Assembly (NCBI GenBank): GCA_045105315.1
Contig: JBGCDI010000003.1
Coordinates: 1,709-65,708, forward strand
Origin: Phycisphaerales bacterium
GTDB lineage: Bacteria > Planctomycetota > Phycisphaerae > Phycisphaerales > UBA1924
DNA length: 64,000 nt
Direction: 5' to 3'
The notes beneath the pieces are model-generated. The model did no database searches. It was not told the DNA's origin and saw nothing but the letters and a program-made list of their open reading frames with translations. Of this stretch, positions 1 through 53,700 are shown piece after piece. The position numbers and the translations under genes are program-made. Position 1 is the first letter of the stretch; each line of letters opens with the position of its first letter.

Positions 1-756
1 AGACCTGCTAAGTTCCCCTTCCCGCTCTTGCATATTGATACTGGTCACAACTTTCCTGAAGCGCTCGATTTTCGTGATTCGCTCGTTGAAGGTATTGGCG
101 AACGGCTCATCGTTCACAAGGTCCAAGACCTGATTGACAAAGGTATTGCCACCGAAGATCCTGGACCATATCCATCGCGGAACCGGGCGCAGATCCCGAC
201 GCTGCTTGATGCGATCGAGACCTACCGGTTTGATGCACTTTTCGGCGGCGCCCGTCGCGACGAAGAGAAAGCACGCGCCAAGGAACGGATCTTCTCGTTC
301 CGGGATGATTTCGGTCAGTGGGACCCCAAAAACCAGCGCCCAGAGCTTTGGAACCTGTATAACGGTCGTCACCAGATGGGCGAGAACATCCGCGTGTTCC
401 CGATCTCCAACTGGACCGAGATGGATGTCTGGCAGTACATCATGCTTGAAAAAATAGCAATCCCCGAGCTCTACTTCTCGCACACGCGCGATGTGGTCAC
501 ACGGATGGGTCAGTATGTCCCGGTCGGGGAAGCGCCGTTTGGTCCTCGCGAGGGCGAAGAGGTCACGACGCGGACAGTTCGTTTCCGCACAGTCGGAGAT
601 ATGAGCTGTACCGCAGCAACAGATTCACCCGCAGCGAACCTCGAAGAAATCGTTGCAGAAGTCGCGGCAGCGCGTGCATCAGAACGCGGAGCGCGGATGG
701 ACGATAAAACAAACGAAGCTGCGATGGAAGATCGTAAAAAAGAAGGATATTTCTAG
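1..756 (+). CDS. cysD: sulfate adenylyltransferase subunit 2 (CysD), 5'-truncated by window edge
   Basis: Frame 1 is open from nt 1 (RPAKFPFPLLHIDTGHNFPE...). It shows the CysD/PAPS-reductase-fold pattern HIDTGHNFPE and FGGARRDEE. cysN follows directly. Confidence 0.9.
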   Translation, partial: RPAKFPFPLLHIDTGHNFPEALDFRDSLVEGIGERLIVHKVQDLIDKGIATEDPGPYPSRNRAQIPTLLDAIETYRFDALFGGARRDEEKARAKERIFSFRDDFGQWDPKNQRPELWNLYNGRHQMGENIRVFPISNWTEMDVWQYIMLEKIAIPELYFSHTRDVVTRMGQYVPVGEAPFGPREGEEVTTRTVRFRTVGDMSCTAATDSPAANLEEIVAEVAAARASERGARMDDKTNEAAMEDRKKEGYF

Positions 757-759
757 GAC

Positions 760-2103
760 ATGGCTCCCGACACTACCCAAAGCGATCTATCGACCAGCAC
801 CAATGCCAATCAAGGGATGGAGTTCTCCACCGATGCGTACCTTGATATGGACCTGCTCAGGTTCCTGACCTGCGGCTCTGTCGATGACGGCAAGTCCACG
901 CTCATCGGACGGTTGCTCTATGACTCAAAGTCCATCTTTGAAGACCAGCTCGAAGCAGCAGAATCCGCGTCCCTCTCGCGAGGTGATCAACGCATGGATC
1001 TCGCGCTGCTCACCGACGGTCTTCGCGCCGAGCGTGAACAAGGGATCACCATCGATGTTGCGTACCGATACTTTGCAACACCCAAACGCAAGTTCATCAT
1101 CGCGGATTGCCCCGGCCATGTGCAGTACACACGCAACATGGTCACCGGCGCATCGACCGCAAACCTCGCGCTGATCCTGATTGATGCTCGGCACGGGGTC
1201 ATCGAACAAACCCGCCGACACTCGTTTATCACATCGCTGCTCCGCATCCCGCACTTGGTGGTGTGTATCAACAAGATGGATCTGGTTGATTGGTCAGAGG
1301 AAACCTACGAGAAGATCCGCGAGGACTTCGAGCAGTTTGCAGCCCGCTTTGAAATCAATGACATTACCTTCGTGCCGCTTTCAGCGCTGACCGGCGACAA
1401 TGTGGTCAATCGCTCAGACAAGATGGACTGGTACCAGGGGCCGTCGCTGCTGCATCATCTTGAGAATGTGCATATTGCGGGTGATCGCGACATGATCGAT
1501 CCTCGGTTCCCGGTCCAGTGGGTGATCCGGCCTCAAGGCGACGAACACCACGACTACCGGGGCTACGGAGGGCAGGTCGCGTCTGGGGTCTTTCAGCCTG
1601 GTGATGAAGTTGTCGCGCTCCCAAGCGGGATGACCAGCACGATCAAATCCATCGATATTGGAGGTGATGCGGTTGGATTCGCGAGTCCACCCCAGAGTGT
1701 GTCGATCCAGCTCGATGACGATATCGATGTCTCGCGAGGGGACATGCTCTGCAGACCAAACAACAAGCCCACAAGCGGCCAAGACATCGACGCGATGATC
1801 GTCTGGATGGCTGATACCCCGATGGTGGTAGGCAAGAAGTATTCAGTGCGGCACACAACCAATGAAGCGCGATGTGTCATTAAAGATCTGCGATACCGGA
1901 TGGATATTGAAACGCTGAGCAGGGTTGAAGAAGCGTCGGATCTTAAGCTCAACGAGATTGGTCGTGTTGCTTTCCGGATGACCAAGCCCTTGTTCTTTGA
2001 TCCGTACCGTCAGTGCCGATCGACCGGGAGCTTTATCATCATTGATGAGCAGACCAACAACACGGTTGGTGCTGCGATGATCATCGGTGAATCGAACTCG
2101 TAG
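760..2103 (+). CDS. cysN: sulfate adenylyltransferase subunit 1 (CysN GTPase), no CysC fusion
   Basis: 447 aa with GTPase motifs GSVDDGKSTLIGRLL, DCPGH and NKMD. Starts 4 nt after the cysD stop. The length fits CysN alone. Confidence 0.9.
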   Translation: MAPDTTQSDLSTSTNANQGMEFSTDAYLDMDLLRFLTCGSVDDGKSTLIGRLLYDSKSIFEDQLEAAESASLSRGDQRMDLALLTDGLRAEREQGITIDVAYRYFATPKRKFIIADCPGHVQYTRNMVTGASTANLALILIDARHGVIEQTRRHSFITSLLRIPHLVVCINKMDLVDWSEETYEKIREDFEQFAARFEINDITFVPLSALTGDNVVNRSDKMDWYQGPSLLHHLENVHIAGDRDMIDPRFPVQWVIRPQGDEHHDYRGYGGQVASGVFQPGDEVVALPSGMTSTIKSIDIGGDAVGFASPPQSVSIQLDDDIDVSRGDMLCRPNNKPTSGQDIDAMIVWMADTPMVVGKKYSVRHTTNEARCVIKDLRYRMDIETLSRVEEASDLKLNEIGRVAFRMTKPLFFDPYRQCRSTGSFIIIDEQTNNTVGAAMIIGESNS

Positions 2104-2891: not shown

Positions 2892-3133
2892 GTCTAAATC
2901 TCTCTTTTTTGGGGTCTCTCTCTTATGCTCGTTGACAATCTCTCTCTAAAGATCGTCTTGGACATACGTATTATCCAATGAGCGCGTTAAATATACACAA
3001 CTGATAAATAGCTGTCAATATTCGAGTTAGAATTAACTTTTATTCTCTTGAATTTAAGCTAACCAATGTGAACATGGGTATTTTAGAGTCGACTTTTTGG
3101 TCCCATTTTGTACAACTACTTTGGAGTTGCTCG

Positions 3134-3667
3134 ATGCTTGAACCAGTAATCACAACCGATCGGCTCTTGATCGACCCCCCGTCGCACACCGATCTTGATG
3201 CCCTTGCTGAGCTCTGGAGCGATGAGCACACGATGCGCTACATCGGAGCGGGAAACGCTTGGAGTCGATCCCAGATTGCTGAGCGCATTGACCGCGCGAT
3301 CAAAACACATCGCCAGCACGGGATGACCTTCTGGACCATCAAGGAACGATCCACCGGAATGATCATTGGACAAGGAGGGCTGGTGCCCATCGAGTTCAAC
3401 GGCCCAGAAATTGAGCTCGGGTATCGACTCGGAAAAGACCATTGGGGCAAGGGATACGCAACAGAAATCGCGAAGGCATCCGCTCGGTACGGCTTGACGA
3501 GTCTCGGGCTCGATGAACTTGTCGCGGTGTGCGATGAGCACAATGACGCATCACGAGTTGTACTTAGTAAGGTGGGCTTCCGTGAGATAGGGCTCTCGCA
3601 AGCGTACTACAACACCTCAACCATACTCCATCGAATGAACCGCGACGATTTTGAGCGAGTAGGATGA
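3134..3667 (+). CDS. GNAT family N-acetyltransferase (RimJ/RimL-like)
   Basis: The ORF runs 3068..3667. I prefer the Met at 3134 (MLEPVITTDRLLI...). GNAT core IELGYRLGKDHWGKGYATE. Confidence 0.8.
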   Translation: MLEPVITTDRLLIDPPSHTDLDALAELWSDEHTMRYIGAGNAWSRSQIAERIDRAIKTHRQHGMTFWTIKERSTGMIIGQGGLVPIEFNGPEIELGYRLGKDHWGKGYATEIAKASARYGLTSLGLDELVAVCDEHNDASRVVLSKVGFREIGLSQAYYNTSTILHRMNRDDFERVG

Positions 3668-3670
3668 CCT

Positions 3671-4921
3671 ATGCCTCTCACTATCCTCCATATCTCTACT
3701 CGTCTCATTCTCGGAGGTTCGCAAGAGAACACCGTCCTCTCGTGTGAAGGTCAAGCGGAACTTGGTCATGATGTTCATCTCACGTTTGGTCCGATCTTTG
3801 GTCCCGAGGGTTCATTACTTGAAAGGGCGGAAGGCTTCCGAACCAAAGATGATCGACCAATACATTGTCACGAAGTCCCGAATCTGGTTCGTGAGATCAG
3901 CCCATCTGCAGACCGTCGATGTCTCTATGAGTTGATGGAACTCATGGAACGCATCAATCCTGATGTGGTCCACACACACTCATCGAAAGCGGGAGTACTC
4001 GGTCGGATAGCAGCATGGAAACGCTTTAAAAGCAGCACCAACGGACGACCAGCAGTCATCCATACCATCCACGGCCCGCCCTTTATGCCCATCGAAGGAG
4101 GCGCTCTCAGTCGATCAAAGGTCGCGTTTAAAAACTGGATGTACACCGTTGCAGAGCGCACAGCTGCGCGCTCATGCCACACCATTGTTTCAGTTGCCGA
4201 TGCGATGACCGATCAGTTTCGTGAACGGAGTATCGGGACTATGAATCAGTATGTCACTGTGCGTTCTGGGATGGAAGTCGAGAAGTTCCTAAAGCCTTTG
4301 CCAGATGAAGACCGCGCGAGCATGCGCGCCCAGCTTGGTTTTTCCGATGACGACTTTGTCATCGGGACCGTCGCAAGACTCGCACAACACAAGGGGCACG
4401 ACGATATTCTTGACGGATTGTGTGATGACCTCCGCGCGAATCCACGCTGGAAACTATTGTGGGTTGGTGATGGATGGTGGACCGATCGGTTGATTGATCG
4501 CGTCCGAGAACTCGGGTTTGAGGATCAACTCGTCCACACCGGGCTGGTTCCTCAGCATCGCGTTGGCGCGATGATGCGCGCGATGGATGTGCTGCTCCAC
4601 CCCAGTTATCGCGAGGGGCTTCCTAGAACGGTGCCTCAAGCATTGCTTTGTAGCGTCCCAGTCTGCGCCAGCAACACTGATGGCACCCCCGAGATTTGCG
4701 TTGATGCTCGCACAGATCCAAATAACGCGACCGGGTTGTTGTTTGAACCTGGAGATGCGCATGGGCTGGGCGATTCGATCCGGTGGATGTATGAGCATCC
4801 ACACGAGAGACGGAAGCTTGGTGTTCGTGGTCGCGAAATCTGCACCGATATGTTCAGCACCGAACGGATGGTGTCAGAACTCGAACGGGTGTACGCAGCG
4901 GCGCTTGCTCGCTCGTTCTAA
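3671..4921 (+). CDS. glycosyltransferase family 4 (GT-B fold)
   Basis: 416 aa with the C-terminal GT4 pattern HPSYREGLPRTVPQALLCSVPVCASNTDGTPEI. Starts 4 nt after the GNAT stop. Confidence 0.85.
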   Translation: MPLTILHISTRLILGGSQENTVLSCEGQAELGHDVHLTFGPIFGPEGSLLERAEGFRTKDDRPIHCHEVPNLVREISPSADRRCLYELMELMERINPDVVHTHSSKAGVLGRIAAWKRFKSSTNGRPAVIHTIHGPPFMPIEGGALSRSKVAFKNWMYTVAERTAARSCHTIVSVADAMTDQFRERSIGTMNQYVTVRSGMEVEKFLKPLPDEDRASMRAQLGFSDDDFVIGTVARLAQHKGHDDILDGLCDDLRANPRWKLLWVGDGWWTDRLIDRVRELGFEDQLVHTGLVPQHRVGAMMRAMDVLLHPSYREGLPRTVPQALLCSVPVCASNTDGTPEICVDARTDPNNATGLLFEPGDAHGLGDSIRWMYEHPHERRKLGVRGREICTDMFSTERMVSELERVYAAALARSF

Positions 4922-4970
4922 TAGACTCTGACTCAACAACCTGAAAGCCCGCAAACGATTCAGGATCAAT

Positions 4971-5006
4971 AAAAAAGAAATGCCTTCGGCGCTACCGAAG
5001 GCATTT
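4971..5006 (-). terminator. rho-independent-type terminator (T-tract on minus strand)
   Basis: 12-bp stem aaatgccttcgg (4978-4989) pairs with ccgaaggcattt (4995-5006), loop cgcta. The minus-strand tail is cttttttatt. It also sits 50 nt after the + strand GT4 stop. Confidence 0.6.
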
Positions 5007-5181
5007 CAATATCTCTCGGAGGGCTTTCGCCCGCCAAATGGGCCATAGAGCCCGATTTCCTACCAAGATCAATAGATCACAAAAATAGCGACATGCCAGT
5101 AATCCCGATAACAAATTAATCAAGATCACTATAAAGTGCTTATTGTCAAGTATTTATGAGCTTGTTTTTTTGCCTACAATC

Positions 5182-5625
5182 TCACGCAGCCGCTGATCTT
5201 GGATACTCAAGCTCAGAAACCGCCCAACGGACCACATCACGGATTGTGATAATCCCGACGCAGTGCCCCTGCTGATCAACAACAGGCAAACACGAAATCC
5301 GGTGATCAAGCATCACTCGAGCAGCGGATCGCAGCGCGGTGTTTGCACGCACCGCGATGAGCTGACGGGTCATGATCTGGTGCGCCTTGCGGTTGAGCAT
5401 CGCGACATCCGCTGACCGCTCTGCCATTTTGCCGACAAAGGGTGAGATGTTCTTGAGCAGGTCACGATCAGAGATTACACCGACGCATGAACCGTCATCG
5501 CCATGGACGATGAGGTGGTGGTAGTGGGAGGTCTCGAAGATCGTCTGAATTTTGCCCACAGCATCATCCATCGAAATGGTTTCGATCGGGTGGGACATGA
5601 CATCTCGTACAATGAGTGCGGGCAT
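5182..5625 (-). CDS. CBS domain-pair protein
   Basis: 147 aa with two CBS-like repeats (VMSHPIETISMDDAVGKI... and IMTRQLIAVRANTALRSAARVMLDHRISCLPVVD). Confidence 0.85.
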   Translation of the reverse strand: MPALIVRDVMSHPIETISMDDAVGKIQTIFETSHYHHLIVHGDDGSCVGVISDRDLLKNISPFVGKMAERSADVAMLNRKAHQIMTRQLIAVRANTALRSAARVMLDHRISCLPVVDQQGHCVGIITIRDVVRWAVSELEYPRSAAA

Positions 5626-5667
5626 GTATGTTCAATCGGGCAGTGGTCGCTGTTCCTATACTGATGT

Positions 5668-6270
5668 ATGAGTGATAACCGCGCGCAAGGTCAATCGGGG
5701 GGTGAAGGTGTAGGGTCTGGACCGGCTGCGATCTGGGCGCCGTGGCGATTAGCGTACATCGAGTCGTTATCGGAAGACCAGGATTCCAAAGACTCCGCTC
5801 CCTCGTCTCGAAGTGCAGCGCCTCCCGGTTCAACAAGCGGCAGTTTCCTGCTTGATTATTGGAACACTCCAGAACTTGACCAAGAGCACTATGTCATCGA
5901 GCGGACAGATGCTGGTCTGATTCTGCTTAATAGGTATCCGTATTCCAACGGGCACTTGCTGATCGCGCTGGGTGATGCTCGTCCAGCATTGATGGATTAC
6001 GAACCGGATCAACGCGCTGCCCTTTGGGAACTGGTTGACCGCGCGACCGCGCTCGCTGAGCTGGCGCTTGAACCACAAGGATTGAATATTGGGATCAATC
6101 AGGGACGGGCTGGGGGGGCGGGGGTGCCGAGCCATCTGCATGTGCATGTGATCCCCCGCTGGAGCGGGGATACGAACTTTATCACAAGCGTGGGGGGGAT
6201 CCGTGTGATCCCCGGGGCGCTTGAGGCGATGTATGAGCGCTACATGCGAGCAGTCGCGGCTTCGAACTAA
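5668..6270 (+). CDS. HIT family protein (Ap4A-phosphorylase-like)
   Basis: Histidine triad HLHVHVIPRW and N-terminal IWAPWRLAYI. The stop overlaps the convergent NeuB-like stop by 4 nt. Confidence 0.85.
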   Translation: MSDNRAQGQSGGEGVGSGPAAIWAPWRLAYIESLSEDQDSKDSAPSSRSAAPPGSTSGSFLLDYWNTPELDQEHYVIERTDAGLILLNRYPYSNGHLLIALGDARPALMDYEPDQRAALWELVDRATALAELALEPQGLNIGINQGRAGGAGVPSHLHVHVIPRWSGDTNFITSVGGIRVIPGALEAMYERYMRAVAASN

Positions 6271-7424
6271 ATGAGATCAGAAGCATTGATCGGGACATCG
6301 GCTTCGATTGCTTGGGCGGTTGTTGTACCGATGACAGATTCGAGATCGCACGCGAGGATGCCGGTGCCTGGCCGTTTGATGGTAAGCATGTCGCGGGTGA
6401 TGGTGGTGCCTGCGGGGATGTCGCATGTTGAGACGACGGACTGGCGGGAGACTGTGCGGACATCTTGTTCGCAGTCGAGGACTCGTTTGATTATCTCGCT
6501 TACTGACACTGCATAAATTGCATCCCAAAATGGATTCGGATGCTGAATCGCATCTGAATATTCTTTGAGCTTTTTTCCATCTCGCATTTGATCGACACTG
6601 TCGTCAATGGATCGCTGAATAGATTCTTTCCAATCAAATCCTTCTGATGCAAGCTTGATGTATCCACTCAGTTGTGCTGCAAGTAAAGATGCCGCGTGAT
6701 CAGGACCTGGTCGATGACGATCATCCGTTATGTGTTTTTCGAGAACACATGCACCAAATGCAACAGCAAGCTTTCCTGATCTGTGTGACTTTGTGTGATC
6801 ACTGTATCCAATAGGAACATTTAGTGCCTTGGTAAACTCAGTGATGCCACCAAAGCCTCGTTCCACACCTATGACGGGATAACTACTCACACATTGCAGT
6901 ATGGCAAATCGATTGCGTGCAGAATCGAGCCAATCGACTGCTCGAACAACTTCGTCCATCGTGCTCGCGCCGGTGCTCACAATCATTGACTTGCCGGTCT
7001 GCATCAATGCTTCAAGCAATGGCTTGTTCACAATATCCGGGCTCGCGGTTTTGTAGGCATCCCAGGAAAGCGTCTCAGCGATGGGGACAAGTTCGGTGCT
7101 GAAGACTGTGACGATCGCGTGGATGCCTTTGCTGTGGGCGCGCTGAACGACCAATGCCATCTCGTCGATGGTGAGTTCGAGTCTTCGGAGCATCTCTATC
7201 GGATCGGTTTCACCCGCGTTCTTCTGGTACGCAGCGAGTTTGGCGGCTTTGCTCATCAACCGGTCGGTCTCAAAGAACTGGAGCTTGATCGCATCAGCAC
7301 CAGCCTCCGCAGCGGCGTCGGTGAGTGACAATGCACGATCCACATCGCCGTCATGATTCACCCCGATCTCCGCAATCACATAGGGCGGATGATTGATTCC
7401 AATCTCTTGATCACCGATGCGCAT
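6267..7424 (-). CDS. N-acetylneuraminate/pseudaminate/legionaminate synthase family protein (NeuB-like)
   Basis: The ORF runs 6267..7502. The Met at 7424 gives MRIGDQEIGINHPPYVIAEIGVNHDGD. C-terminal SAF-like segment DIPAGTTITRDMLTIKRPGTGI. There is an extra ~40 aa before the SAF segment. Confidence 0.85.
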   Translation of the reverse strand: MRIGDQEIGINHPPYVIAEIGVNHDGDVDRALSLTDAAAEAGADAIKLQFFETDRLMSKAAKLAAYQKNAGETDPIEMLRRLELTIDEMALVVQRAHSKGIHAIVTVFSTELVPIAETLSWDAYKTASPDIVNKPLLEALMQTGKSMIVSTGASTMDEVVRAVDWLDSARNRFAILQCVSSYPVIGVERGFGGITEFTKALNVPIGYSDHTKSHRSGKLAVAFGACVLEKHITDDRHRPGPDHAASLLAAQLSGYIKLASEGFDWKESIQRSIDDSVDQMRDGKKLKEYSDAIQHPNPFWDAIYAVSVSEIIKRVLDCEQDVRTVSRQSVVSTCDIPAGTTITRDMLTIKRPGTGILACDLESVIGTTTAQAIEADVPINASDLI

Positions 7425-8172
7425 GGACTGCACTCCCCTCAACAGCTTGCTCGCGCAGCACCGCGTCAGCAACCAGCTGATCGATCCGCGAATCAATATC
7501 AATCACATCACCCTCATCAGTCACCACCGCGCGCCGGTCAGTCCCAAGAAACGCGTGCGGGCTTAGCAGGTCAAGCTCGGGGTTGTTGAGTTCGAGCATA
7601 AGTGATTCAGGAGTCACCGCGATCACGCCCCCATCAGGAACCATCGCGGGCGGGAGGTCTTGTCTGCGGAAACAGTTGTGGTAGAGCACATCCCCCTGCC
7701 AAGGCAGCACCGAGCCGTGCTCATCAACTCGCACCGTCCACCACGGATGGTGCTTGCCCACCCGCGCGTAGGACTGCACGCTATGGGCTTGGCTATCGAT
7801 CAGTTTGATCACCGCTTCGTCAATCAGTGCCGATGGTCGGACCGGAACATTGGCATACAGAATCACGATTGGGCCAGCGATCGAGCCGATCGTTTGGTAC
7901 GCGTGTCTTGCTGCGCTATCAATCGTTGCGTGGTCATTGGCAAACTCGAGCGGTCGATCCACCACAATGCACCCATGCGAAGACGCGATCTGCTGAACCT
8001 GAGCATCATCAGTCGAGACCACGACCGTACCGATCATGGATGACCGATGAGCAGCGTCAATCGTCCACTCAACGCAAGGCTTCCCCCCAACTACCGCATG
8101 GTTCTTTCCCGGGAGCCCTTTGGACCCAGCACGCGCCAGGATGATCGCGGTCGCTTTCTGATGACTGTTCAT
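7411..8172 (-). CDS. acylneuraminate cytidylyltransferase family protein (NeuA/PseF/LegF-like)
   Basis: 253 aa with motif ATAIILARAGSKGLPGKN. The 3' end overlaps the NeuB-like start. Confidence 0.85.
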   Translation of the reverse strand: MNSHQKATAIILARAGSKGLPGKNHAVVGGKPCVEWTIDAAHRSSMIGTVVVSTDDAQVQQIASSHGCIVVDRPLEFANDHATIDSAARHAYQTIGSIAGPIVILYANVPVRPSALIDEAVIKLIDSQAHSVQSYARVGKHHPWWTVRVDEHGSVLPWQGDVLYHNCFRRQDLPPAMVPDGGVIAVTPESLMLELNNPELDLLSPHAFLGTDRRAVVTDEGDVIDIDSRIDQLVADAVLREQAVEGSAVHAHR

Positions 8173-11100
8173 GCGCCCGCTCCTGCTGGTGTGATGTGCG
8201 ACTTTGGTTCGACCGAAGCAGCGTGGTCATGAACGCGGCGCAGCTGCGTGTACGCTTCGTGGACCCCGAGCTCGAATGCATTGATCGATCCGATCGGACG
8301 ACGGTGCGCATCAACAACGCGTCCATTACTTGCAATCCGCAGGATCTGATTGTCGAGTTGTTCTTGCCGGTCGCGTGGTACTTTGAGGGCTTGGATTCGG
8401 TCTGATGCTTCAGCACACAACGGCGCATCGATCGTTGCACACCCGCACACTGTGAGCCAGCGATCGTAGAATGATTCGATGTCGGCATACACCGCATCGC
8501 ACCGGGTCATGCGAGGAAGAATCCATGGACGCGGGAGCGAGCCAGAAATATCACTTGCTTGATTGTTGCGCGCACTGAATAACGACTGCATGACATCAAG
8601 CAGTCGCTCAAACCCATCAACTCCCGTCATCACCTCATAGAGCGAACGCGAGTTGGCGAGCACATCAACAGAAAGCACATCGATTCCGGATTCAATAATC
8701 TGTTCAGGAGTCGCTGTGGAGTTGACAATCAGATCAACAAGGTCAGTCCGGAGCTCAATGCTCGCGATGCCTTTAGATTTGAGAGTATCGATCATTGGGA
8801 ACACATCGGGATGAGTCAGTGGATCACCTCGGCCATGAATAAGCACCGAGCAATCTGGGCGAAGCGTGCGCGCTTGTGAACAGATCAGCTCAGCATGCTG
8901 AATGCTCATGCGGTTCATCGGATCGGTGTGCTGATTATGGAACGCCCACACACCACCGGATCGAGGCGCGTTGGTGATTTCGAGTTCAATGCGTGAAGGC
9001 GCATTGTTCTGCGCAAGTGCGAGCTCGTTGGTGTACGCTTGCATCAATACCTTGGTTTCTGCGTTTGATGCGTATGACCCAAGTCCGCGGTACGCTGAGG
9101 CCATTGCATTGGCGCGAACAGGAGTGTCCGCGATCACGCGGACGCCCGCATCTCGAGCGGCAAGATCAACCCCCACACAAAGCGGTGATGCAATCGGATC
9201 CGACTGTGGACCGATCGGAATATAACTCAACATCGCCCCGACCGAACCAAGCACACCCGATGCACTCGCAGCACGAGCAAGCGAATCCACCGCATCAGCA
9301 TCAAGCACACAACACCCGATCCCAGGAACCGCTTGCGAGAACGGCACCCGGCAACGCGACGGATCACCCCGGTACTGACTGACGATCTGATCGACAAGCA
9401 CAGGGTCAACCATCGCCCAGTCGCTTCCAACCACCGCGCACGCATCGATGTGGTGCTCCACCATCAGCGCTGAGAGCACAGCCGGGTCCAAACCTTCGTC
9501 ATAACAACTCATCGAACCGATCGAACCACGCCAGCACTCGCTTGATGCAAACCGGGCTTGCCCGATCACAGCACTCCGCTGACGATACTGCTGAGCGTCA
9601 ACTCCGACAACACGAACCGGAATCGTTTGTGCATCGATCGACATCATCCGGATCGATTCGGGATCAGGACTCACGATCGTGATCCCATCGATGGTGCTTG
9701 TGCGTGTCAACCTCTGAATCGTCAGCTCCAGCGCGTTGAGCCCTTCATGAATCGGTTGACCAAGCGGGCGAGCAATCCCGAGTGGACCAAATTCCGGATC
9801 AGCAAAGATCACCGCTTCGACGCGCTGTGCAGGCTGGTGTGACTGCGCGGATTGGTCTTGGCTCCCCATCTCGATCTGCTCATGAGCAAACTCATCACGC
9901 GTCATCGGTGGCTGAGTCCCATCGAGCACCGCCAGCACGCGCTCGACAAGGTTCTTGACTTCAAGCGCTGAACCTTTGACCCATTGCACATTGTGCGCAT
10001 CACGATCGAGCTGTTTGATTTGCCTTTCTGATTCATCGAGATCTTTGATCAGTGATATCTGGCGGTCGACCCGGAAACGGTTGAGCGCGCCCTTCTGATT
10101 GATAAAATTCACCAGCCCAAACCCGGGCTCGCTCGCGGTGACATCATCTCGGATCGTGTGTATTTGTCTGATGCACCGATCAACGGTTGCTGGGTCGTCG
10201 ATGTGTTCTTGTGCTTTGTTGATCAGCTCGATTGTTCGTTCACTGAGCCGATGGATTGAGGTGAGCTGACGGATAATGAGCTCAACGCGTGACCGCACAT
10301 CACGCGCGTGCTGATCATCGTTCATAAGTTCTGACGGCGTCAACGGAAGATCGATTTGCTCCAATGATCCGAACTCTTGGATCGCATCACAGAGTGTCAT
10401 GACCTCGGTGTTGCGGATATGCACCCCGCCTTGGGTCGCGTTGATAATCCGCATTGGCTGGTGATCAGGATTGTTTGGGTTCAACGCAGCGTCTTGCTGA
10501 AAGTCGCTCTCAAACTGCGCGATGTAGGTCGACATCTGCTCATCGGTGTAGATCGGCCGGCCTTGCACATCGGTGCGTTTGCGCAGCAGATTCTTCATCC
10601 GCATGATGCGTTCCCATTCAAACATCTCAAGCGTCCGATGCTCAGAAAGCTCACCCGCCCAGACCCGGTGAATAGAAGCCCCGCTCGCGTAGTACTGCCC
10701 GTCGGTAAACCCAAGATCCTGACCGATCAGGATCGCGGTTGTGCATCCAAGATAACGAGCGAGGTAATAGTTCAGGTGCGCGACGGTTGCGCCGCTTGGA
10801 AGCGTGCCCATCTCTCTAGATAGCTCATCACCAAGCAGCAAATCCAGCTGAGGTTCGCCAGCACACACAATCTCACCCGGAAACGCGTCAACGATCGCTG
10901 CGTTGGCTTTGGGCTCGACGACCAGCCGAACACCGTCCACATCTTCTGTGGTCAGCCCTTCATAAAACCGTTTGCTGATCTCATGGTGATCAAGCGCCGT
11001 AACAAAGTGGGGCTTGATCCCGCGCTCAAGCAAAGGCTTGAGCATTGTCTGGACCGCGATGATCACGAATCGATCGCGGATCGATGGATCTTCAAGCAGG

Positions 11101-11915
11101 TGCAGGTTCCGCTGAAGCGATGGACCCGCAGCAACCAAGATCGCTGCTTTGCCTGCGCACGAATCTTTAAGCGGGATGATCCCGCTTCGTGATGCGTACA
11201 CCCCGGTGTTCATCAATATATTGCGAAGCGTCACCCCTGAGTGGGCAAGCACCGTAACAAGGTGCGTGCGCGTTGAGCGCACCACATCGAGGAAGTTTGA
11301 AGAAAACGCTGACGCCCGGTCTCCCAATCGCTTCTTGCTCCCAGGATGAGATGCAAGCTCGACACCGGTCGACAAAAACGCTTCGGCGCCGCTAATCAGA
11401 TGCCCGATAGTCGACGCGTCGGTTGTCGTGCTCAGTACAAACAGAGAATCCTGGATCCACTCGCTGTGATCGACGCGCTCCAGAACCGCACGAAGCATCC
11501 CCACATCAGGCTCATAACACAACAACAACGAAAGCTTCCCATGCGCTTGCTGAAGGGCGCGCACATGGTACCCAAGACCAAACCCAAGAATCCCGATAAA
11601 CCCGCAATGCTGAGGATCGTACTGCTCAGCCCATGTACTTGCTTCGCGCGAGGGTTGACGCTTAGAGCACATCGCGCGGCCATCATGGATCGCAACCACC
11701 TCTCCATCAGGACTCCTGAGAAACTGGATGCTTGCATCAGCGTCTGCCGACTCAATTGCAAGCGCTGCCTGAGGCGAGCGCACGCGAATCGCTGCAAGGT
11801 TCCGTTCTAGAATCTCAGGATTCGGAACAACGATACCATCATCCGTCGAAGGGGTCGTACGCGTAGATGAAGTCATGATCCGCTCCAGCTCATTGATTCT
11901 CTTCTCGCAACTCAC
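8169..11915 (-). CDS. Maf/DUF115 (motility-accessory-factor-like) fusion protein carrying a C-terminal radical-SAM-like domain without the Cys triad
   Basis: 1,248 aa. DUF115 pattern AAILVAAGPSLQRNL...IKPHFVTALDHHE...GATVAHLNYYLARYLGCTTAILIGQDLGF. C-terminal IELEITNAPRSGG...IHGRGDPLTHPD...ELRTDL...SVDVL. ATGA overlap with the NeuA-like gene. Confidence 0.7.
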   Translation of the reverse strand: MSCEKRINELERIMTSSTRTTPSTDDGIVVPNPEILERNLAAIRVRSPQAALAIESADADASIQFLRSPDGEVVAIHDGRAMCSKRQPSREASTWAEQYDPQHCGFIGILGFGLGYHVRALQQAHGKLSLLLCYEPDVGMLRAVLERVDHSEWIQDSLFVLSTTTDASTIGHLISGAEAFLSTGVELASHPGSKKRLGDRASAFSSNFLDVVRSTRTHLVTVLAHSGVTLRNILMNTGVYASRSGIIPLKDSCAGKAAILVAAGPSLQRNLHLLEDPSIRDRFVIIAVQTMLKPLLERGIKPHFVTALDHHEISKRFYEGLTTEDVDGVRLVVEPKANAAIVDAFPGEIVCAGEPQLDLLLGDELSREMGTLPSGATVAHLNYYLARYLGCTTAILIGQDLGFTDGQYYASGASIHRVWAGELSEHRTLEMFEWERIMRMKNLLRKRTDVQGRPIYTDEQMSTYIAQFESDFQQDAALNPNNPDHQPMRIINATQGGVHIRNTEVMTLCDAIQEFGSLEQIDLPLTPSELMNDDQHARDVRSRVELIIRQLTSIHRLSERTIELINKAQEHIDDPATVDRCIRQIHTIRDDVTASEPGFGLVNFINQKGALNRFRVDRQISLIKDLDESERQIKQLDRDAHNVQWVKGSALEVKNLVERVLAVLDGTQPPMTRDEFAHEQIEMGSQDQSAQSHQPAQRVEAVIFADPEFGPLGIARPLGQPIHEGLNALELTIQRLTRTSTIDGITIVSPDPESIRMMSIDAQTIPVRVVGVDAQQYRQRSAVIGQARFASSECWRGSIGSMSCYDEGLDPAVLSALMVEHHIDACAVVGSDWAMVDPVLVDQIVSQYRGDPSRCRVPFSQAVPGIGCCVLDADAVDSLARAASASGVLGSVGAMLSYIPIGPQSDPIASPLCVGVDLAARDAGVRVIADTPVRANAMASAYRGLGSYASNAETKVLMQAYTNELALAQNNAPSRIELEITNAPRSGGVWAFHNQHTDPMNRMSIQHAELICSQARTLRPDCSVLIHGRGDPLTHPDVFPMIDTLKSKGIASIELRTDLVDLIVNSTATPEQIIESGIDVLSVDVLANSRSLYEVMTGVDGFERLLDVMQSLFSARNNQASDISGSLPRPWILPRMTRCDAVYADIESFYDRWLTVCGCATIDAPLCAEASDRIQALKVPRDRQEQLDNQILRIASNGRVVDAHRRPIGSINAFELGVHEAYTQLRRVHDHAASVEPKSHITPAGAGA

Positions 11916-12103: not shown

Positions 12104-12739
12104 ATGCACACAGGGGACCCGATGCAATCTGCACTCTTTGAACCAACCAACTTACCTGAAATCGAGCCTTCTTCACCACTCACCAGCGCGATGTTCGAAA
12201 GCCCGCTCATCGCTATGGTCGGGCTTGTGTTGATGGGTGTGCTGCTGCTGCTTGCGCTCAGATCTCGCGCCCAGATCAAAGCAGGATTGATTGCATTCCT
12301 GTGCTCACTGCTTCTTGCAGGGGGGCTTTGGGTCTCAAGCACCTTGGTTGAAACCGACCGTGAATCGGTTTCAAACATCGCGCGTCAGCTTGTCGATGCA
12401 ACCGCAACTGGTGACCGATCAAGATTGGAATCCATAATGATCCCAAGCATCACCGTCACCGCATCATTTGCCAGCGCCCAGGGACGGGACAAGGTGGTGG
12501 ACTTAGCAGCCAAACGAGTCCCACCGATCGTTGATTCCTACACGATCCCAGAAATCCGGGCTGATCTCCCAGGCCCTCGCGTCGCGCGGACCATGATCAA
12601 AATCCGCGCCAAAAGCGACTCCGCGCCACTCGGATCAAGCTGGTGGATGGTCAACTGGCAGCGATCATCGCCTGATTCATCAGACTGGCTTGCCACCTCA
12701 ATTCAACCGGTCTGGATTCAAGGAATCTCATCCCCATGA
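12104..12739 (+). CDS. hypothetical membrane protein
   Basis: 211 aa with two hydrophobic helices (PLIAMVGLVLMGVLLLLAL and LIAFLCSLLLAGGLWVSS) followed by a soluble domain. No motif recognised. Confidence 0.5.
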   Translation: MHTGDPMQSALFEPTNLPEIEPSSPLTSAMFESPLIAMVGLVLMGVLLLLALRSRAQIKAGLIAFLCSLLLAGGLWVSSTLVETDRESVSNIARQLVDATATGDRSRLESIMIPSITVTASFASAQGRDKVVDLAAKRVPPIVDSYTIPEIRADLPGPRVARTMIKIRAKSDSAPLGSSWWMVNWQRSSPDSSDWLATSIQPVWIQGISSP

Positions 12740-12847: not shown

Positions 12848-13801
12848 TTAAGGGATCCCAACAAGCGAAGACGGCTGAAGACGCGTCACGCGCTGACCAG
12901 ATGAAGATGTAATCGTTTCGCGCATCCCTTGACCATTTAAGTAGTTATACGGGAATCGCTTACGAAGTTCCTTGAGTCGTCCAGACTCAATCGCAGGCGT
13001 GGTCGATCCATCAAAATCACCATCACCAAACACACCAATCGTCACTGTGCTGCGAAGCGGCGCATGGTAATAGAACGCTCGTTCTCCTTGCTCGCGAAGC
13101 TCCGAGACCGCTTGTTCTGCTGAGGCACGGAACTCTCTGATTTCTGAGGAACTTGGGTTCGTTTGACCCACCGTGCCGTAGACCCCGATCTGAAGCGTGT
13201 ACAAAGCCGCGGGACCAAACCGCTCTTTGACAGTTCGTAAATCGAGCTCCGCATTCTTTCCAGATAACGCATCCCCGCTTGGTGGCGCGAGGAACGCTGC
13301 AGCAAACGGGCGAGACCCATCGGACTGCATCTCGCGGACACGATCAAGATCCAGAAGCGCCCGGCGATCATCCGGCCCGGTGTACTTGCCGTAACTGATA
13401 ACCGTTTTGTCCGCGCGTTCAGTGATGTAGGCACTCAGAAGACCAAACTTGGTTTGGACCGTATTGAGAACCACCGGCGCCATCTCAGGTTTCGGGAGGG
13501 TCACCAGCACAATGGACCACTGGAACGCATCATCTACATCGTCGCTGGATTCGAAGTCTGGAATATCGAGCGCTTCATTGTCAGTAAATACCGCAGCGCC
13601 CTCACTTTTGAGGGATCCGGATTCATCCTTTGAGCTTGAGCCGAACGATCCGCATCCTTGTACCAACAGCATGAAAACAGCCGAAATGAGACCCAAAAAC
13701 AAGAAATGTGTGTGATGAGCAACAATTGCGCGACAACCGAACAAACAGAAAACCGGCTTGTGATGGGTAATTCGTGGGGTTGTGCGTATGTGTGTAAACA
13801 T
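12848..13801 (-). CDS. putative lipoprotein with SPOR-like repeats
   Basis: Lipobox-like LLVQGC. Two SPOR-like segments (WSIVLVTLPKPE...VISYGKYTG and YTLQIGVYGTVGQ...VTIGVFGD). Start uncertain. Confidence 0.55.
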   Translation of the reverse strand: MFTHIRTTPRITHHKPVFCLFGCRAIVAHHTHFLFLGLISAVFMLLVQGCGSFGSSSKDESGSLKSEGAAVFTDNEALDIPDFESSDDVDDAFQWSIVLVTLPKPEMAPVVLNTVQTKFGLLSAYITERADKTVISYGKYTGPDDRRALLDLDRVREMQSDGSRPFAAAFLAPPSGDALSGKNAELDLRTVKERFGPAALYTLQIGVYGTVGQTNPSSSEIREFRASAEQAVSELREQGERAFYYHAPLRSTVTIGVFGDGDFDGSTTPAIESGRLKELRKRFPYNYLNGQGMRETITSSSGQRVTRLQPSSLVGIP

Positions 13802-14036: not shown

Positions 14037-14339
14037 ATGACAGACATTTCCCCGATCAACACAAGCGCCGCTGCGAGCGTTGGCAGAATCCGATCCGAGC
14101 AAATCTCACGACCGGATGCTGCGATTGACAATACGCGAGCCAGACCAACCCGATCCAATGATCAGGTTGAGTTCTCGAGTGTTGCCCGATTCCTCTCTGA
14201 GCTCAAGACAGGGACCGCTGAGCGTGCAGAGCTCATCAACCGGGTCCGCGAAGAAATCGATGCGGGCACATACGACACCCCAGAGAAGCTCGAAGCAGCA
14301 ATCGATGGCGTGAAAGAAGATCTTGAGTTCACACTCTAA
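14037..14339 (+). CDS. flgM: anti-sigma-28 factor FlgM
   Basis: 100 aa with FlgM C-terminal pattern VEFSSVARFL...LINRVREEIDAGTYDTPEKLEAAIDGV. SD-like aaaggagg upstream. Confidence 0.75.
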   Translation: MTDISPINTSAAASVGRIRSEQISRPDAAIDNTRARPTRSNDQVEFSSVARFLSELKTGTAERAELINRVREEIDAGTYDTPEKLEAAIDGVKEDLEFTL

Positions 14340-17769: not shown

Positions 17770-18039
17770 TGGGTGTGTATCGTCTGATCATTCGATGGAT
17801 CTCATCAAGCAATGCGTTGCATTTGAAAGATCACGGTTCTCGGTCGATCCATAGCATTCATACGGGCAAATCCTCTATAATGCAGTCGGATTTGGGCCGC
17901 AACTCGGATGATTCTCGGATGTTCAACTTCTGGGACAGGTTCCAATCACGCATCCGAAAGCCCAGCACCAGAACGGAGCATTCCGCTGAATCTATCACGA
18001 TTGAATCGAATTTTTCCGAGTCCTGCAGGATTCCGCTTG

Positions 18040-21000
18040 ATGGGGCGTGCATGTACACGCACACAGACCCGCACTCAGACTCCCACTCAGACACATTCGT
18101 TGATCAAGCTGAGTGTGTGTGTTGGTGTATGTGCTGTAGCCCAGCTGGCGCATGGACAGCGCGTCAACCAAAGCGCCGTCGCCAACCCAGTCTACATCGC
18201 TGATGCGCCCCTCGCGATCGAAACCATCGAACGCGCCCTCGCACTCTCAGAGCAAGGCAGCGACAACGAAGCAGCACGGACCCTTACCGAACTCATCATC
18301 AATCAAGGCCAGCGCTTTACGCTCCGAGATCCTGTTCCTGAATCAGAAGATCCAGATACAGCCAGCCCAGATACACCCAGTAATACAGAGAACCCTGTGT
18401 GGATCCCGGTGCGCACGCGCGTGCACATGATTCTCCAGTCAAAGCCATCCCTGCTCAGTGCATACCGGCGCATCAACACCCCGAAAGCTCAACGGCTACT
18501 CGATGCAAATCAATGGGAACAAGCACGGGAAAAGTACTGGCTGACTACACCCGGCGCAAACGCGTCGCTCAACTACGCGCAGGTGCTGATCGAAAGCGCT
18601 CGGTTTGCGCCCGGTCTGCGAGAGCTGGATCGTCTGCTTTCGCATCCTGACGCGAGCTCGATATCTTTGCGAGCTTTATCACTCGTTGAGCTGTGTGCCC
18701 GTGCAAGCGATCAATCGAATGTTGATTCGCGTATCAACACACTCCTTGATCAATGGTCCTCGCGTGCAGGTCGCGCTCCAGATGTGGGCGACCCGTTCAC
18801 AAGACCACCGCAAAGCGGTGACCAGGTCCGTGCTTTGCTCTCGGCGCCGATTGATCTAAACCAAGAAAGCCTGCGTCTCAACGGGATTGTCCCGCGTCCG
18901 ATTGCGGGGGCCAAGCTCACACCGCCCCCAACTTCTGATGAGCTTGGTTCGGTGAGTGATCAACCCGCGCCCGGCGCGGTGAGTCAGCCCAAGCCTTGGA
19001 CAATGCCTGTGCTGCTTGGGGATACATTGATTGCCAATGACGGGATCACGATCACCTCGTTTGATCGCTTTACCCTCCGCCCGAAGTGGCGCTTGACCAC
19101 CACTGAGCTCGACACTGATGACCAAGACAGGTCAAGCATCGGTGTCCGGTCTCGCATCGCTCGCACGGTCGAAGATTTGTCGACCGCAACGATCCACAGC
19201 GATCGTGTCTATCTTGCTGCGGGACTCGCTCGCACCGGAGGACGAACAGGCGACAACCGGATCCTCTCCATCGACGCCCAGTCAGGCGCGCTCGTCAAAC
19301 AAACCACACTCGCTGAGCTCGACCCAGCACTCGAAGGATCAACCGTCCGAGGCACACTTCTCGTTGACGGGGACACACTGATCATCGCAGCACGCAAAAA
19401 CCTCAGACGCGAACGACTGGTCGTGCTAGCACTGGTAGGAATCAATCGCCATACCTTTGAGCACCAATGGACACGAGAAATCGGCAGCGCCGGCTCACTC
19501 CCATTCCAGCAGATCGGACAGATTTCGCATTCAGGAATCCTCGATCAAGGCATCATCTACTGGACCGACATGATGGGGCTCGTGTGCGCCGTCGAATCAG
19601 CAACAGGCGAAGCACTCTGGGCAAAATCGATGCCCACCACAGATATCTACGCACGCTATGAACGGGATCCCTGGACCGTGTCGACCCCGATTGTTCGTGA
19701 TGACAATCTCTTCATTCTCGCAGCAGCGGGTCAGCGGATCGACAAAATCAACGCACGCACTGGTGATCGCATTTCCTCCACACGATCGATGGTCAGCGGT
19801 CAAGGGTTGTACCTTCTCGAAACCCCGACCTCCCTGGTGTGCATCAACAACACCGCGATCGCTCTCCATCGCTTTGATAAGTTCGCAGTCAATAAACCGA
19901 TCCTCGCCACACCGACAAGCGACGGAAGGGCTGCGTTCCGAGGCCGGGTCGTGACGACCGGAGAATCACTCCTGGTTCCCATCCTTGATGGTGTCGGGGT
20001 CATCGACACGACTCAATACATCAACAACCAACCAGCCAATGCGCGCCAGCTCATCACACTCGAAACCACCGGCATGATCACTGCGCTCGATGGTCAGCTC
20101 ATCGTCGCGGGTGAAAGCGAAATCTGGAGCTACCTCTCGTGGGATATCGCTCGACAGTTCCTCAATGATCGGATCGAGAATCTGAACGATGTGCACGCCG
20201 CGATCACGATGGGTGATCTTGCATACCGGTCAGATCATCACAGCGAAATTATCCCCGCGATCGACCGCGCCATCGAGATGCTCCGCTCATCGAATCTCAA
20301 CAGTTCAAGAGTCAATGCAGACCACGCTGATGCTCGTCAGCGACTGTTTGCGATCATGCAAGATATGGTCGGTCTCCCTGGACACACCTCAGCAGACTCC
20401 ACATCAACACCAGATAGCCCAACGGAAATCATCAGCAGTGAGATCCGTGATCAGCTCATCGAGCGCTGCGGGATCGTTGCCAGAACTGCAGACCAGGTCC
20501 TTGCCCATCAAATGACCCAAGGCGCCTGGCAAACCGTGCTCGGTCAAATTCCCGATGCGGTCCGCGTCTATCACGGCATCCTGAGTAACCCATCACTCGC
20601 CAACGGGATGTGGCAAGGAACCGGACTCGCGATCCGCGCCGAGCTCGAAGCAACCAATCAGCTCAGCCGCATCGTGAGTGAGCACGGCCGAAACGCATGC
20701 GCGATGTTCGATCAGCTCGCGCTCGCAGACACCCAAGCACTCTCTGGTTCACGCAATCCAGAAGACTTCGAGCAACTCGCGCGACAATATCCGTGGGCAC
20801 CAACAATCCCGGCAGTCTGGTCGCAAGCTGCAGACCTCTGGGCACTCAACGACAACCACGCTGCGTCCGTCCGCGCCGCCCAGTCAGGATTTGATGCACT
20901 CGAGCGCCTCCAAGTTCATGGATTAGCACCTGACCAAACCACGCTGGACTCCCTTGGTTCATCTCTCATCACCGGACTCCTCGGCGCTCAGCGCCAAAGC

Positions 21001-24407: not shown

Positions 24408-26087
24408 ATGAACGGTCCACCACACCGCTCATCAACTCAGCTCGTGAGTAAATCCTCAGCACGAAAGCTCATGATCACGATGGGGCAAGTTGACCGCTAT
24501 CACGATCGAAAGCAGGACCAAGCGGTCCTGAACGATGTCTTGGCGCAGATCCGCGCTCAGCATCCCGAGCATGCGCGCAAATGGTTTGATGAGCTCGAAC
24601 CCCTCGGTACCGTCGCAAGCTCTTTCGGGATCCGCGCCCAGAGTGAAATGCACCGCGACTATCTCAGGCGTACATGTCTAGATGCATTCAACGAAGCGCT
24701 CCGAGACATCACTCTTGAGCTGCTCGCGGTCCGGTTCCTTGGACCCCAAGACCAATGGGAAACACCACCAAACACACCCAAGAAATCAAACAAGCAAGCA
24801 ATCCCAAATCAGCTCCCAGCTCAACAAATCGAGCATTCACCCTCGATCAAAAATGATCACACCGCATCCATTCCCCCCACTGAACGCGCTCCAGTGACCC
24901 AAAGCCAATCCAACTCAATCTGGGCTGACGAAGCAGGTGTCCCCCAAAACGAGCTTGATCGCCAAAGTCAGACCAACAACCAAACAGTCAACACCCCGAT
25001 CGTCCACGCGAGCTCAGAACGATCCAGACTCGATTCAAGCGGAGCCCTCCCGATCAATCCTGATTATGGATTCGGCGAGTTCGTCATCGGACCAAACAAC
25101 AGACTCGCCCACGCAGCCTCCGTCGCGGTCTCTGAAAACCCAGGATTCGCGTACAACCCCCTCTTCATCCATGGCGGGGTCGGGCTTGGTAAAACCCACC
25201 TGCTCCAAGCGATCTGCCTGAAAATAACCCAAGAAAATCCCGGGATCAACCTCCATTATGTTTCCTGCGATGGATTCATGACCCAGTTCATGAACGCGGT
25301 CCAGTCCGGACAGATGGCTGAGTTCAGACACACCTTCCGCGATATCGACCTCCTCGTCATCGATGACATCCACTTCCTGGCGCGCAGGGACCGCACGCAA
25401 GAAGAGTTCTTCCATACCTTCAACGCTCTCTATCAAGGCAACAAACAAATCATCCTCTCATCAGACGCTCCACCAGAAGAAATCCCCGATCTCGAAGAAC
25501 GGCTCGTCTCCCGGTTCATGTGGGGGCTGGTAGCCAAAGTCGAGAAGCCGGGATTCGAAACCCGGATCGAGATTCTCAAACGCAAAGCAGATGCTCGCGG
25601 GATCAAACTCCCCGAACCCGTCGTCACCGAAATCGCGCACTACATCGATACCAACATCCGCGAGCTCGAAGGAGCAATCACCAAACTCCAGATATTCGCC
25701 AATGTCGAAAAACGAGACATCGATCTGGACCTCGCGCGCGATGCGCTCGGTCAAGAGTTTGCCAGTGCCGTCAGCGCCCAAGGCACCGGACCAACCATCG
25801 AACGCATCATCTCCGAAATCTCAGGGTACTACTCCGTCAAACGCACCGAAATCCTGGGCAAACGACGACACAAATCCATCGCACTCCCCAGACAAGTCGG
25901 GATGTACCTCACACGCAAATACACCAGACACTCCCTCGAAGAAATCGGCGCCCACTACGGCGGACGAGACCACACCACCGTCATGCACGCGGTCAAAACC
26001 ATCACCGCACGAAGCAAAGAAGACGAATCCCTCCACAGCGATGTCCTCGCAATCGAATCCCGGCTCCGCGTCGGATCTGGCAGCTAA
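24408..26087 (+). CDS. dnaA: chromosomal replication initiator protein DnaA
   Basis: Walker A GGVGLGKTHL, Walker B LLVIDDIHF, C-terminal HTH RRHKSIALPRQVGMYLTRKYT...GGRDHTTVMHA. Long Q/N/P-rich linker. The start may instead be the Met at 24471 or 24480. Confidence 0.92.
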   Translation: MNGPPHRSSTQLVSKSSARKLMITMGQVDRYHDRKQDQAVLNDVLAQIRAQHPEHARKWFDELEPLGTVASSFGIRAQSEMHRDYLRRTCLDAFNEALRDITLELLAVRFLGPQDQWETPPNTPKKSNKQAIPNQLPAQQIEHSPSIKNDHTASIPPTERAPVTQSQSNSIWADEAGVPQNELDRQSQTNNQTVNTPIVHASSERSRLDSSGALPINPDYGFGEFVIGPNNRLAHAASVAVSENPGFAYNPLFIHGGVGLGKTHLLQAICLKITQENPGINLHYVSCDGFMTQFMNAVQSGQMAEFRHTFRDIDLLVIDDIHFLARRDRTQEEFFHTFNALYQGNKQIILSSDAPPEEIPDLEERLVSRFMWGLVAKVEKPGFETRIEILKRKADARGIKLPEPVVTEIAHYIDTNIRELEGAITKLQIFANVEKRDIDLDLARDALGQEFASAVSAQGTGPTIERIISEISGYYSVKRTEILGKRRHKSIALPRQVGMYLTRKYTRHSLEEIGAHYGGRDHTTVMHAVKTITARSKEDESLHSDVLAIESRLRVGSGS

Positions 26088-53642: not shown

Positions 53643-53700
53643 AGATTCGCTCCATCCGCCCATTCAAGCGGTCTTCATTCCCACAGACCGAGTCCAAAGC

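Follow-up and report, generated by a model that had tools for sequence, protein, structure and literature searches.

The stretch of DNA analysed here (hereafter the window) comprises 64,000 nucleotides of a Phycisphaerales bacterium (contig JBGCDI010000003.1) and harbours, on its minus strand, a gene in which a complete Maf (motility accessory factor) unit is followed by a C-terminal module built of two further enzyme folds. Positions 8169-11915 form an uninterrupted frame of 1,248 codons, as seen from the translation of the open reading frame (ORF), and the plus-strand translation of the same interval is stop-riddled. The longest version of the ORF begins with GTG at 11915, and the length of 1,248 amino acids (aa) given in the initial annotation corresponds to this start; the true start, however, is probably the ATG at 11876, which shortens the product to 1,235 aa. 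Exactly this product appears in the database as gene call P0001, and the coding sequence, its stop codon included, spans 8169-11876. The stop codon TGA (8169-8171) overlaps the ATG of a downstream NeuA-like gene (7411-8172, minus strand) in a shared ATGA, the coupling of the two genes being thus as first described.

The N-terminal half of the protein is of a known kind. A hidden Markov model (HMM) search with PF01973 gave 113.5 bits (E = 1.2e-32, cut-off 34.6) over residues 219-392, in agreement with the DUF115 assignment made earlier, and the three signature motifs on which that assignment was based (AAILVAAGPSLQRNL, IKPHFVTALDHHE and GATVAHLNYYLARYLGCTTAILIGQDLGF) can all be found in the sequence; in an alignment of 120 homologues they occupy positions with no or next to no variation. 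The invariant motifs of the central domain are AGPSL, LDxHE, GATVAH and GQDLGF. The model of the Maf N-terminal domain, PF20157 (Maf_flag10_N), is matched weakly by the window protein (17.1 bits, E = 0.004, cut-off 23.5), and a precomputed PF20157 match exists for some of the homologues. The best NCBIfam match of this part of the protein is the PseD model NF050051 (49.1 bits, E = 3e-13), which lies far under the cut-off of 670 and spans the catalytic domain only.

AlphaFold models were produced separately for residues 1-675 and 676-1235, and their secondary structure was used for the placement of residues. The first model, built from 50 homologues (pLDDT 90.3, pTM 0.87; predicted local distance difference test and predicted template modelling score, respectively), consists of an alpha/beta N-terminal domain, a central alpha/beta domain and a C-terminal helical bundle. 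On the DNA these correspond to a Rossmann-like domain (residues ~20-176; 11349-11819, minus strand, as are all parts of the gene), which is evident by its fold, collinear with the N-terminal domain of Maf 5MU5; to the central Maf_flag10/MptE-like (DUF115) catalytic domain (residues ~219-480; 10437-11222), which has the 5MU5 fold; and to a bundle of long alpha-helices (residues ~521-651; 9924-10316). The closest fold in the PDB by far is the Magnetospirillum Maf 5MU5 (Foldseek E = 8.7e-19, template modelling (TM) score 0.52/0.54), which is matched over three domains and 750 alignment columns, followed by the archaeal kinase MptE (8sd5, E = 8.7e-5), which is matched in the central domain only. 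At the level of sequence, the family profile reaches 5MU5 with E = 4e-6; a single-sequence search of the PDB with the N-terminal half returned no match.

A three-domain layout with a helical third domain has been described for Maf (PMC11339370), and residues 1-651 of the window protein are a complete three-domain Maf: the whole layout of the known Mafs, i.e. 5MU5 of Magnetospirillum magneticum AMB-1, CbMaf of Clostridium botulinum and Maf1 of Aeromonas caviae, is reproduced. The unit is probably catalytically active. Unlike 5MU5, with which it shares ~15% identity, the window protein is doubled in size by a C-terminal module of 550 residues. Known Mafs are indeed about half as long, as had been pointed out at first: 5MU5 has 666 aa, and the unfused Mafs of Phycisphaerae have 641-657 aa.

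The Maf unit is joined to the module by a low-complexity linker (residues ~652-685; 9822-9923), with pLDDT values below 50 at the adjoining ends of both models, and it is at this point that sister lineages split the protein into two genes (L084-L087). The model of residues 676-1235 (pLDDT 91.2, pTM 0.91) begins with a domain of cytidylyltransferase fold and remodelled nucleotide loop (residues ~686-915; 9132-9821), whose Foldseek matches include the Leptospira cytidylyltransferase 6oew (TM score 0.73, normalised to the target), KdsB 1gqc, 1h7e, the CMP-Neu5Ac synthetase 6ifd and 2xwn. A helical connector (residues ~916-961; 8994-9131; helices 244-283 of the model) leads from it to the second fold. 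The weak nucleotidyltransferase-like pattern initially reported for residues ~690-950 is in keeping with this fold and with the HMM results: PF02348 does not match the domain, NTP_transf_3 (PF12804) stays below threshold (E = 0.32), and no cytidylyltransferase HMM rises above it. When the domain was compared by hhalign with 80 neighbouring NeuA proteins, 52 columns of the first beta-alpha-beta unit alone could be aligned (E = 0.05); hence its homology to NeuA rests on fold, not on sequence.

In the same alignment the cytidine triphosphate (CTP)-binding segment ARAGSKGLPGKN of NeuA corresponds to ADPEFGPLGIARP, so that the key Arg and Lys of the CTP loop are replaced. The middle domain thus has the alpha/beta fold of NeuA, KdsB and Leptospira 6oew, but the N-terminal CTP motif PARxxSKxxPxKN of NeuA and KdsB reads ADPxxGxLGxxR. 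Its own conserved motifs are DPxxxGLGxxR, CWRG, YDE and GxDWxxVDP, the last of which may, to judge from its sequence, correspond to the conserved Asp-Pro motif of cytidine monophosphate (CMP)-sugar synthetases. Canonical cytidylyl transfer by this domain is unlikely and would be redundant with the activity of the adjacent NeuA.

The second fold of the module is a partial triosephosphate isomerase (TIM) barrel of the radical S-adenosylmethionine (SAM) type (residues ~962-1150; 8427-8993), for which Foldseek retrieved BlsE 7vob, SuiB 5v1q, viperin-like 9dfn, DesII 8hzy and MoaA (E from 1e-7 to 1e-5). The three-module order of the initial annotation (Maf, nucleotidyltransferase-like, radical-SAM-like) is therefore borne out, by the HMM search for the Maf part and by the AlphaFold and Foldseek folds for all three, and it is conserved. 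The radical-SAM pattern seen in the last ~270 aa held good as a fold; however, PF04055 remains below threshold on the barrel (15.3 bits, E = 0.023, cut-off 29.5) and aligns over model positions 39-139 only, past the region of the cysteine motif, and the CxxxCxxC motif itself, the absence of which had been overlooked, is found nowhere in the sequence of the window protein or of any of the 263 collected relatives. The site after the first barrel strand reads IELEITNAPRSGG in the window protein, with IELEITNAPRSGGVW (TNAPRSGG) at the motif position. Most homologues have LELCTGRLxGG there, with one Cys, and in the window protein even this first Cys is missing. The GGEP-like motif is retained as GRGDPL (GxGDPL). 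With the module profile, only marginal radical-SAM matches were obtained among PDB sequences (NifB, E = 0.05). Since CxxxCxxC is missing, the SAM-cleaving [4Fe-4S] cluster cannot be held, and radical-SAM chemistry by the module is excluded; the reading as an active radical-SAM enzyme was rejected on the same ground.

The C-terminal subdomain (residues ~1151-1235; 8172-8426) is recognised, from an alignment of fused and standalone modules, as a remnant of a SPASM/twitch auxiliary-cluster domain. All auxiliary-cluster cysteines have gone from the fused branch, and the loss is confined to it. The module thus resembles the radical-SAM/SPASM enzymes (SuiB, BlsE, viperin, DesII, MoaA and the PqqE-type maturases) in its partial TIM barrel and C-terminal extension as well as in its recognisable GGEP-like and strand-end motifs, but differs from them in having neither CxxxCxxC nor the cysteines of the auxiliary clusters. 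Meanwhile, some 25 residues are invariant across fused and split modules alike, including WRG, YDE, DW..D, GxGD.L and TD, and the secondary structure of the model places them at the C-termini or ends of strands and in loops of both folds, i.e. at the usual ligand sites. Such invariance indicates that the module is under purifying selection. Enzymes of the SPASM type mostly have peptides or proteins as substrates; it is plausible, as speculation, that a descendant of such an enzyme would serve as a device for binding the acceptor.

The fusion is widespread in one group of bacteria. A database search yielded more than 120 clusters of full-length homologues of 1,186-1,295 aa with 40-61% identity, labelled in their sources as DUF115 domain-containing or hypothetical proteins; those clusters that carry a taxon name all stem from metagenome-assembled genomes (MAGs) of Phycisphaerales, bar one labelled only "bacterium". 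Relatives outside this family were sought by searching cluster representatives with a profile of the module, which gave 528 representative (50%-identity) clusters below 1e-30. The 150 listed matches are dominated by the fused family, nearly all of them having 1,150-1,300 aa and a C-terminal module, and the first standalone versions of the module surfaced in the same search. In a data set of one genome per species, relatives of the module occur in 146 genomes; the best 80 of these were examined and all are fused, and they are MAGs of Phycisphaerales, Phycisphaeraceae or Planctomycetota except for three labelled "uncultured bacterium" and one assigned to Cyanobacteria. The latter ("Cyanobacteria bacterium CYA", L056, RHKP01000023.1) has the fused gene in the gene order of Phycisphaerae and is probably a mis-binned contig. 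Altogether, Maf and module share one stop-free frame in 82 of 84 loci, and the ORF is real and encodes one polypeptide.

The two unfused loci among the 84 were found through short matches of the representative search; in both, a Maf gene of 641-657 aa overlaps by 4 bp a module-only gene of 552-562 aa. With further examples the arrangement proved constant, the module gene directly following a 641-657-aa Maf gene in all four split loci examined (L084-L087), with the 4-bp overlap in three of them, and in L086 the pair is followed by NeuA and a NeuC-type epimerase. A search seeded with P0226, the standalone module of one of the first two unfused loci, led to more than 120 clusters of standalone modules from Planctomycetota and Phycisphaeraceae. 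Many of them match the Pfam family SPASM (PF13186) and are named "SPASM domain-containing protein" or "spiro-SPASM protein" in their sources, the latter name being used for some of them by the Joint Genome Institute. Standalone modules retain five conserved cysteines of the C-terminal subdomain (GCG, CRQ, CDQDW, CxxCxEWHRP), which are typical of an auxiliary-cluster site, whereas the radical-SAM cysteines are absent from both groups in the alignment. Fused and split forms therefore differ systematically: the former have the linker and have lost the SPASM cysteines. Whether fused or adjacent, Maf and module are established as an obligate evolutionary partnership.

For all 33 modules tested, fused and split, the best NCBIfam family is TIGR04321 ("spiro-SPASM protein"), with a best E-value of 2.9e-44, although every score checked falls short of the cut-off of 250 bits. 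P0226 is matched with 117.6 bits over model positions 88-506 of 510, both domains being collinear with the model, and the module of the window protein with 33 bits (E = 2.5e-8) over positions 224-405 only. The name of the model refers to spirochetes and holds no function. The window module departs from it in being a partial match, in having no SPASM cysteines, in its fusion to Maf and in its origin from Planctomycetota. The spirochete proteins of TIGR04321 presumably lack the radical-SAM cysteines as well. In the literature, no paper was found on this architecture, on any function of the spiro-SPASM family, or on Maf or flagellin glycosylation in Phycisphaerae, and a 2026 paper on Treponema flagella makes no mention of Maf or SPASM.

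As with known Maf genes, the window gene adjoins genes for nonulosonate synthesis and activation. The NeuA-like gene (7411-8172) encodes a CMP-nonulosonate synthetase that matches PF02348 above threshold (E = 4e-17) and has PseF as its best NCBIfam match (E = 4e-22, below cut-off). It is followed by a NeuB-like nonulosonate synthase gene (6267-7502, minus strand; PF03102 E = 4e-60, with a SAF domain), and this downstream arrangement is kept in nearly all of the 84 loci. The NeuB of the window is closer to NeuB_NnaB (E = 4e-83) than to PseI (E = 8e-51), both matches being under their cut-offs, and by this similarity of the synthase the sugar would be of the neuraminic/legionaminic acid (Neu/Leg) rather than the pseudaminic acid (Pse) type. 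If NeuB were translated from the first codon of its longest ORF (TTG at 7502), it would share ~90 nt with the 3' end of NeuA; since the homologous NeuB genes begin a few bases past the end of NeuA, the real start probably lies near 7400.

More distant relatives have a NeuC-type epimerase gene after NeuB. In the clade of the window it is absent from this place (3068-6270, compared with L001, L002 and L086), which is taken in the window by genes for HIT (ATP adenylyltransferase-like), CBS-pair, GT4 glycosyltransferase and GNAT acetyltransferase proteins; the same genes are found in L004, L005, L008, L009, L011 and L018. This replacement suggests a different sugar or a relocated step of the pathway.

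On the other side of the Maf gene, and divergent from it, lies a gene for a 211-aa protein with two transmembrane segments (12104-12739, plus strand), then one for a 317-aa lipoprotein-like protein with a "GC" lipobox (12848-13801, minus strand), neither of which has a Pfam or NCBIfam match. Next comes a gene for a FlgM-like anti-sigma-28 factor (14037-14339, plus strand; TIGR03824 E = 2.6e-5, below cut-off); its equivalents in L001 and L002 are matched by PF04316. The order FlgM-like, lipoprotein-like, two-transmembrane (divergent), Maf fusion, NeuA and NeuB recurs across the 84 loci, with order and orientation of the three upstream genes kept in most of them. The three genes may functionally belong to a glycosylation or flagellar locus. 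The FlgM-like gene is the sole flagellar marker near the locus: a tblastn search with a sequence of E. coli FliC detected no flagellin gene in the window or within 8-10 kb across 87 loci, in contrast to known Maf systems.

Several other features of the window were noted. The locus is bordered by CysD- and CysN-like genes for sulfate adenylyltransferase (28-2103, plus strand), and in the flanks of L001 and L002 genes for sulfotransferases with tetratricopeptide repeats (TPR) are found not far from NeuA and NeuB, a hint that the glycans of this group may be sulfated. DnaA (24408-26087, plus strand) and DnaN (52473-53663, minus strand) are both encoded in the window, 26 kb apart on opposite strands, and the plus-strand GC skew over positions 1-64000 is slightly positive up to ~8 kb and strongly negative past ~18 kb; a replication landmark may be close to the locus. 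Positions 17908-22485 (plus strand) encode a protein of 1,525 aa with PQQ-like beta-propeller repeats, which has a 1,483-aa counterpart at the same relative position in L001. Three consecutive large ORFs of 348, 663 and 677 aa with no Pfam match (56083-57129, 59036-61027 and 61120-63153, all on the minus strand) occupy the region of the strongest negative GC skew.

The closest parallel to this arrangement comes from Shewanella oneidensis, where Maf-1 binds flagellin through a C-terminal TPR domain and Maf-2 depends on GlfM, a factor encoded in cis; these elements provide flagellin binding and site specificity, and between lineages the fused arrangement has given way to the separate one and vice versa (bioRxiv 10.1101/2023.12.03.569772). 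Like these Mafs, the Maf core of the window has an extra element encoded in cis, which is fused to it or separate and adjacent according to lineage. Instead of a TPR domain or the four-helix bundle of GlfM, however, the element consists of a cytidylyltransferase fold and a radical-SAM/SPASM fold, and its role is putative.

Taken together, the product would be a Maf glycosyltransferase of known kind with a new type of accessory module. We lean, with moderate confidence, towards an enzyme that would transfer a nonulosonic acid to flagellin and would carry its own non-radical accessory module, serving specificity or the binding of a ligand. In this scheme the products of the NeuB-like and NeuA-like genes would make and activate a nonulosonic acid, which the Maf unit, as in characterised Mafs, would transfer in its CMP-activated form onto Ser/Thr of flagellin in the cytoplasm. 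Residues 686-1235 constitute a spiro-SPASM-like module that descends from real enzymes and has lost their cofactor and CTP sites. It would serve as an obligate accessory of Maf; its conserved pocket residues suggest a ligand or substrate, which may be the flagellin acceptor, the CMP-sugar donor or else a nucleotide, and by binding it the module would confer specificity or coupling. Flagellin is proposed as the acceptor on the strength of what is known of the Maf family and of the FlgM neighbour. Some of the evidence weighs against this scheme. The conservation of pocket residues in both extra domains would fit a still active, non-radical enzyme equally well, the case for a flagellin acceptor draws on family knowledge and on a FlgM-like neighbour that scores weakly, and no flagellin gene was met with in the search described above.

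The most serious competitor is indeed a module that has remained an enzyme. By non-radical chemistry it might attach a substituent to the nonulosonic acid or to the glycosylated flagellin, or alter one there, with the conserved pockets holding a nucleotide or SAM for the purpose. The invariant charged and aromatic residues common to fused and split forms stand at the canonical active-site positions of both folds, split relatives have kept the auxiliary-cluster site, and the top structural neighbours include viperin, BlsE and DesII, which bind nucleotides or nucleotide sugars. Nevertheless, the fused branch has shed every cluster cysteine and kept the module, which suggests that the clusters are dispensable, and no characterised enzyme family was matched above threshold. 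Moreover, we know of no precedent for catalysis by a radical-SAM barrel without its cluster. An enzymatic module of this sort seems rather unlikely, although the conserved pockets would allow it.

A second possibility concerns the N-terminal unit, which might act on another protein or glycan, or might be a pterin diphosphokinase like MptE. In the 87 loci searched no flagellin gene was detected nearby, the scope of PF01973 extends to the archaeal kinase MptE, and MptE structures are among the matches of the central domain (8sd5, E ~1e-4). On the other hand, the three-domain match to Maf 5MU5 is better than that to MptE by 14 orders of magnitude, the best NCBIfam model, although under its cut-off, is one of flagellin modification (PseD), and the gene is closely linked with NeuA and NeuB, a FlgM-like gene being a further conserved neighbour. 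Hence both variants appear improbable.

Still less can be said for a trifunctional enzyme, whose middle domain would use CTP to activate the sugar, whose C-terminal domain would alter it through radical-SAM chemistry and whose Maf unit would carry out the transfer. Such a combination of sugar activation or modification with transfer in one polypeptide had been proposed initially, and the folds of the two extra domains, the retained GxGDPL and the position of the gene within a nonulosonic-acid locus agree with it. The residues and genes it requires speak otherwise: the cysteine motif is absent from all 263 relatives, with even its first Cys gone from the window protein, the CTP-binding loop is replaced, PF04055 and the cytidylyltransferase HMMs all remain below threshold, and a separate, translationally coupled NeuA-like gene that does pass the PF02348 threshold lies directly downstream. 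The proposal is accordingly very improbable. Finally, a frameshift or assembly error merging a Maf gene with the next gene, which a single-base error could produce given the 4-bp overlap of the separate genes in some relatives, was rejected as practically out of the question, since a survey of related genomes found the single ORF in 82 of 84 independently assembled loci, 80 species-representative genomes among them, and fused and split forms differ systematically in linker and SPASM cysteines.

To return to the accessory module, a more specific proposal can be made, though only tentatively, as we hold it to be possible rather than probable. The module may be a previously unrecognised, dedicated partner of Maf, a pseudoenzyme derived from a peptide-modifying maturase and a sugar-activating enzyme, which selects the flagellin acceptor or gates the CMP-sugar donor. 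As to what lets a Maf protein select its flagellin acceptor and its sugar donor, the answers known so far are fusion to a TPR domain and GlfM, a small factor. The module described here is a third, structurally unrelated add-on, which has become fixed as a fusion throughout a clade of marine Planctomycetota, while sister lineages encode it in a gene of its own next to Maf, and it offers a clear case of two enzyme folds retained past the loss of their catalytic cofactor sites. The fused and split pairing also connects the spiro-SPASM family, for which no function has been assigned, to protein glycosylation with nonulosonic acids. If the proposal is true, the module would join TPR domains and GlfM as a third class of element that gives Maf its specificity, and would provide the first functional context for the uncharacterised spiro-SPASM family (TIGR04321), its spirochete members included.

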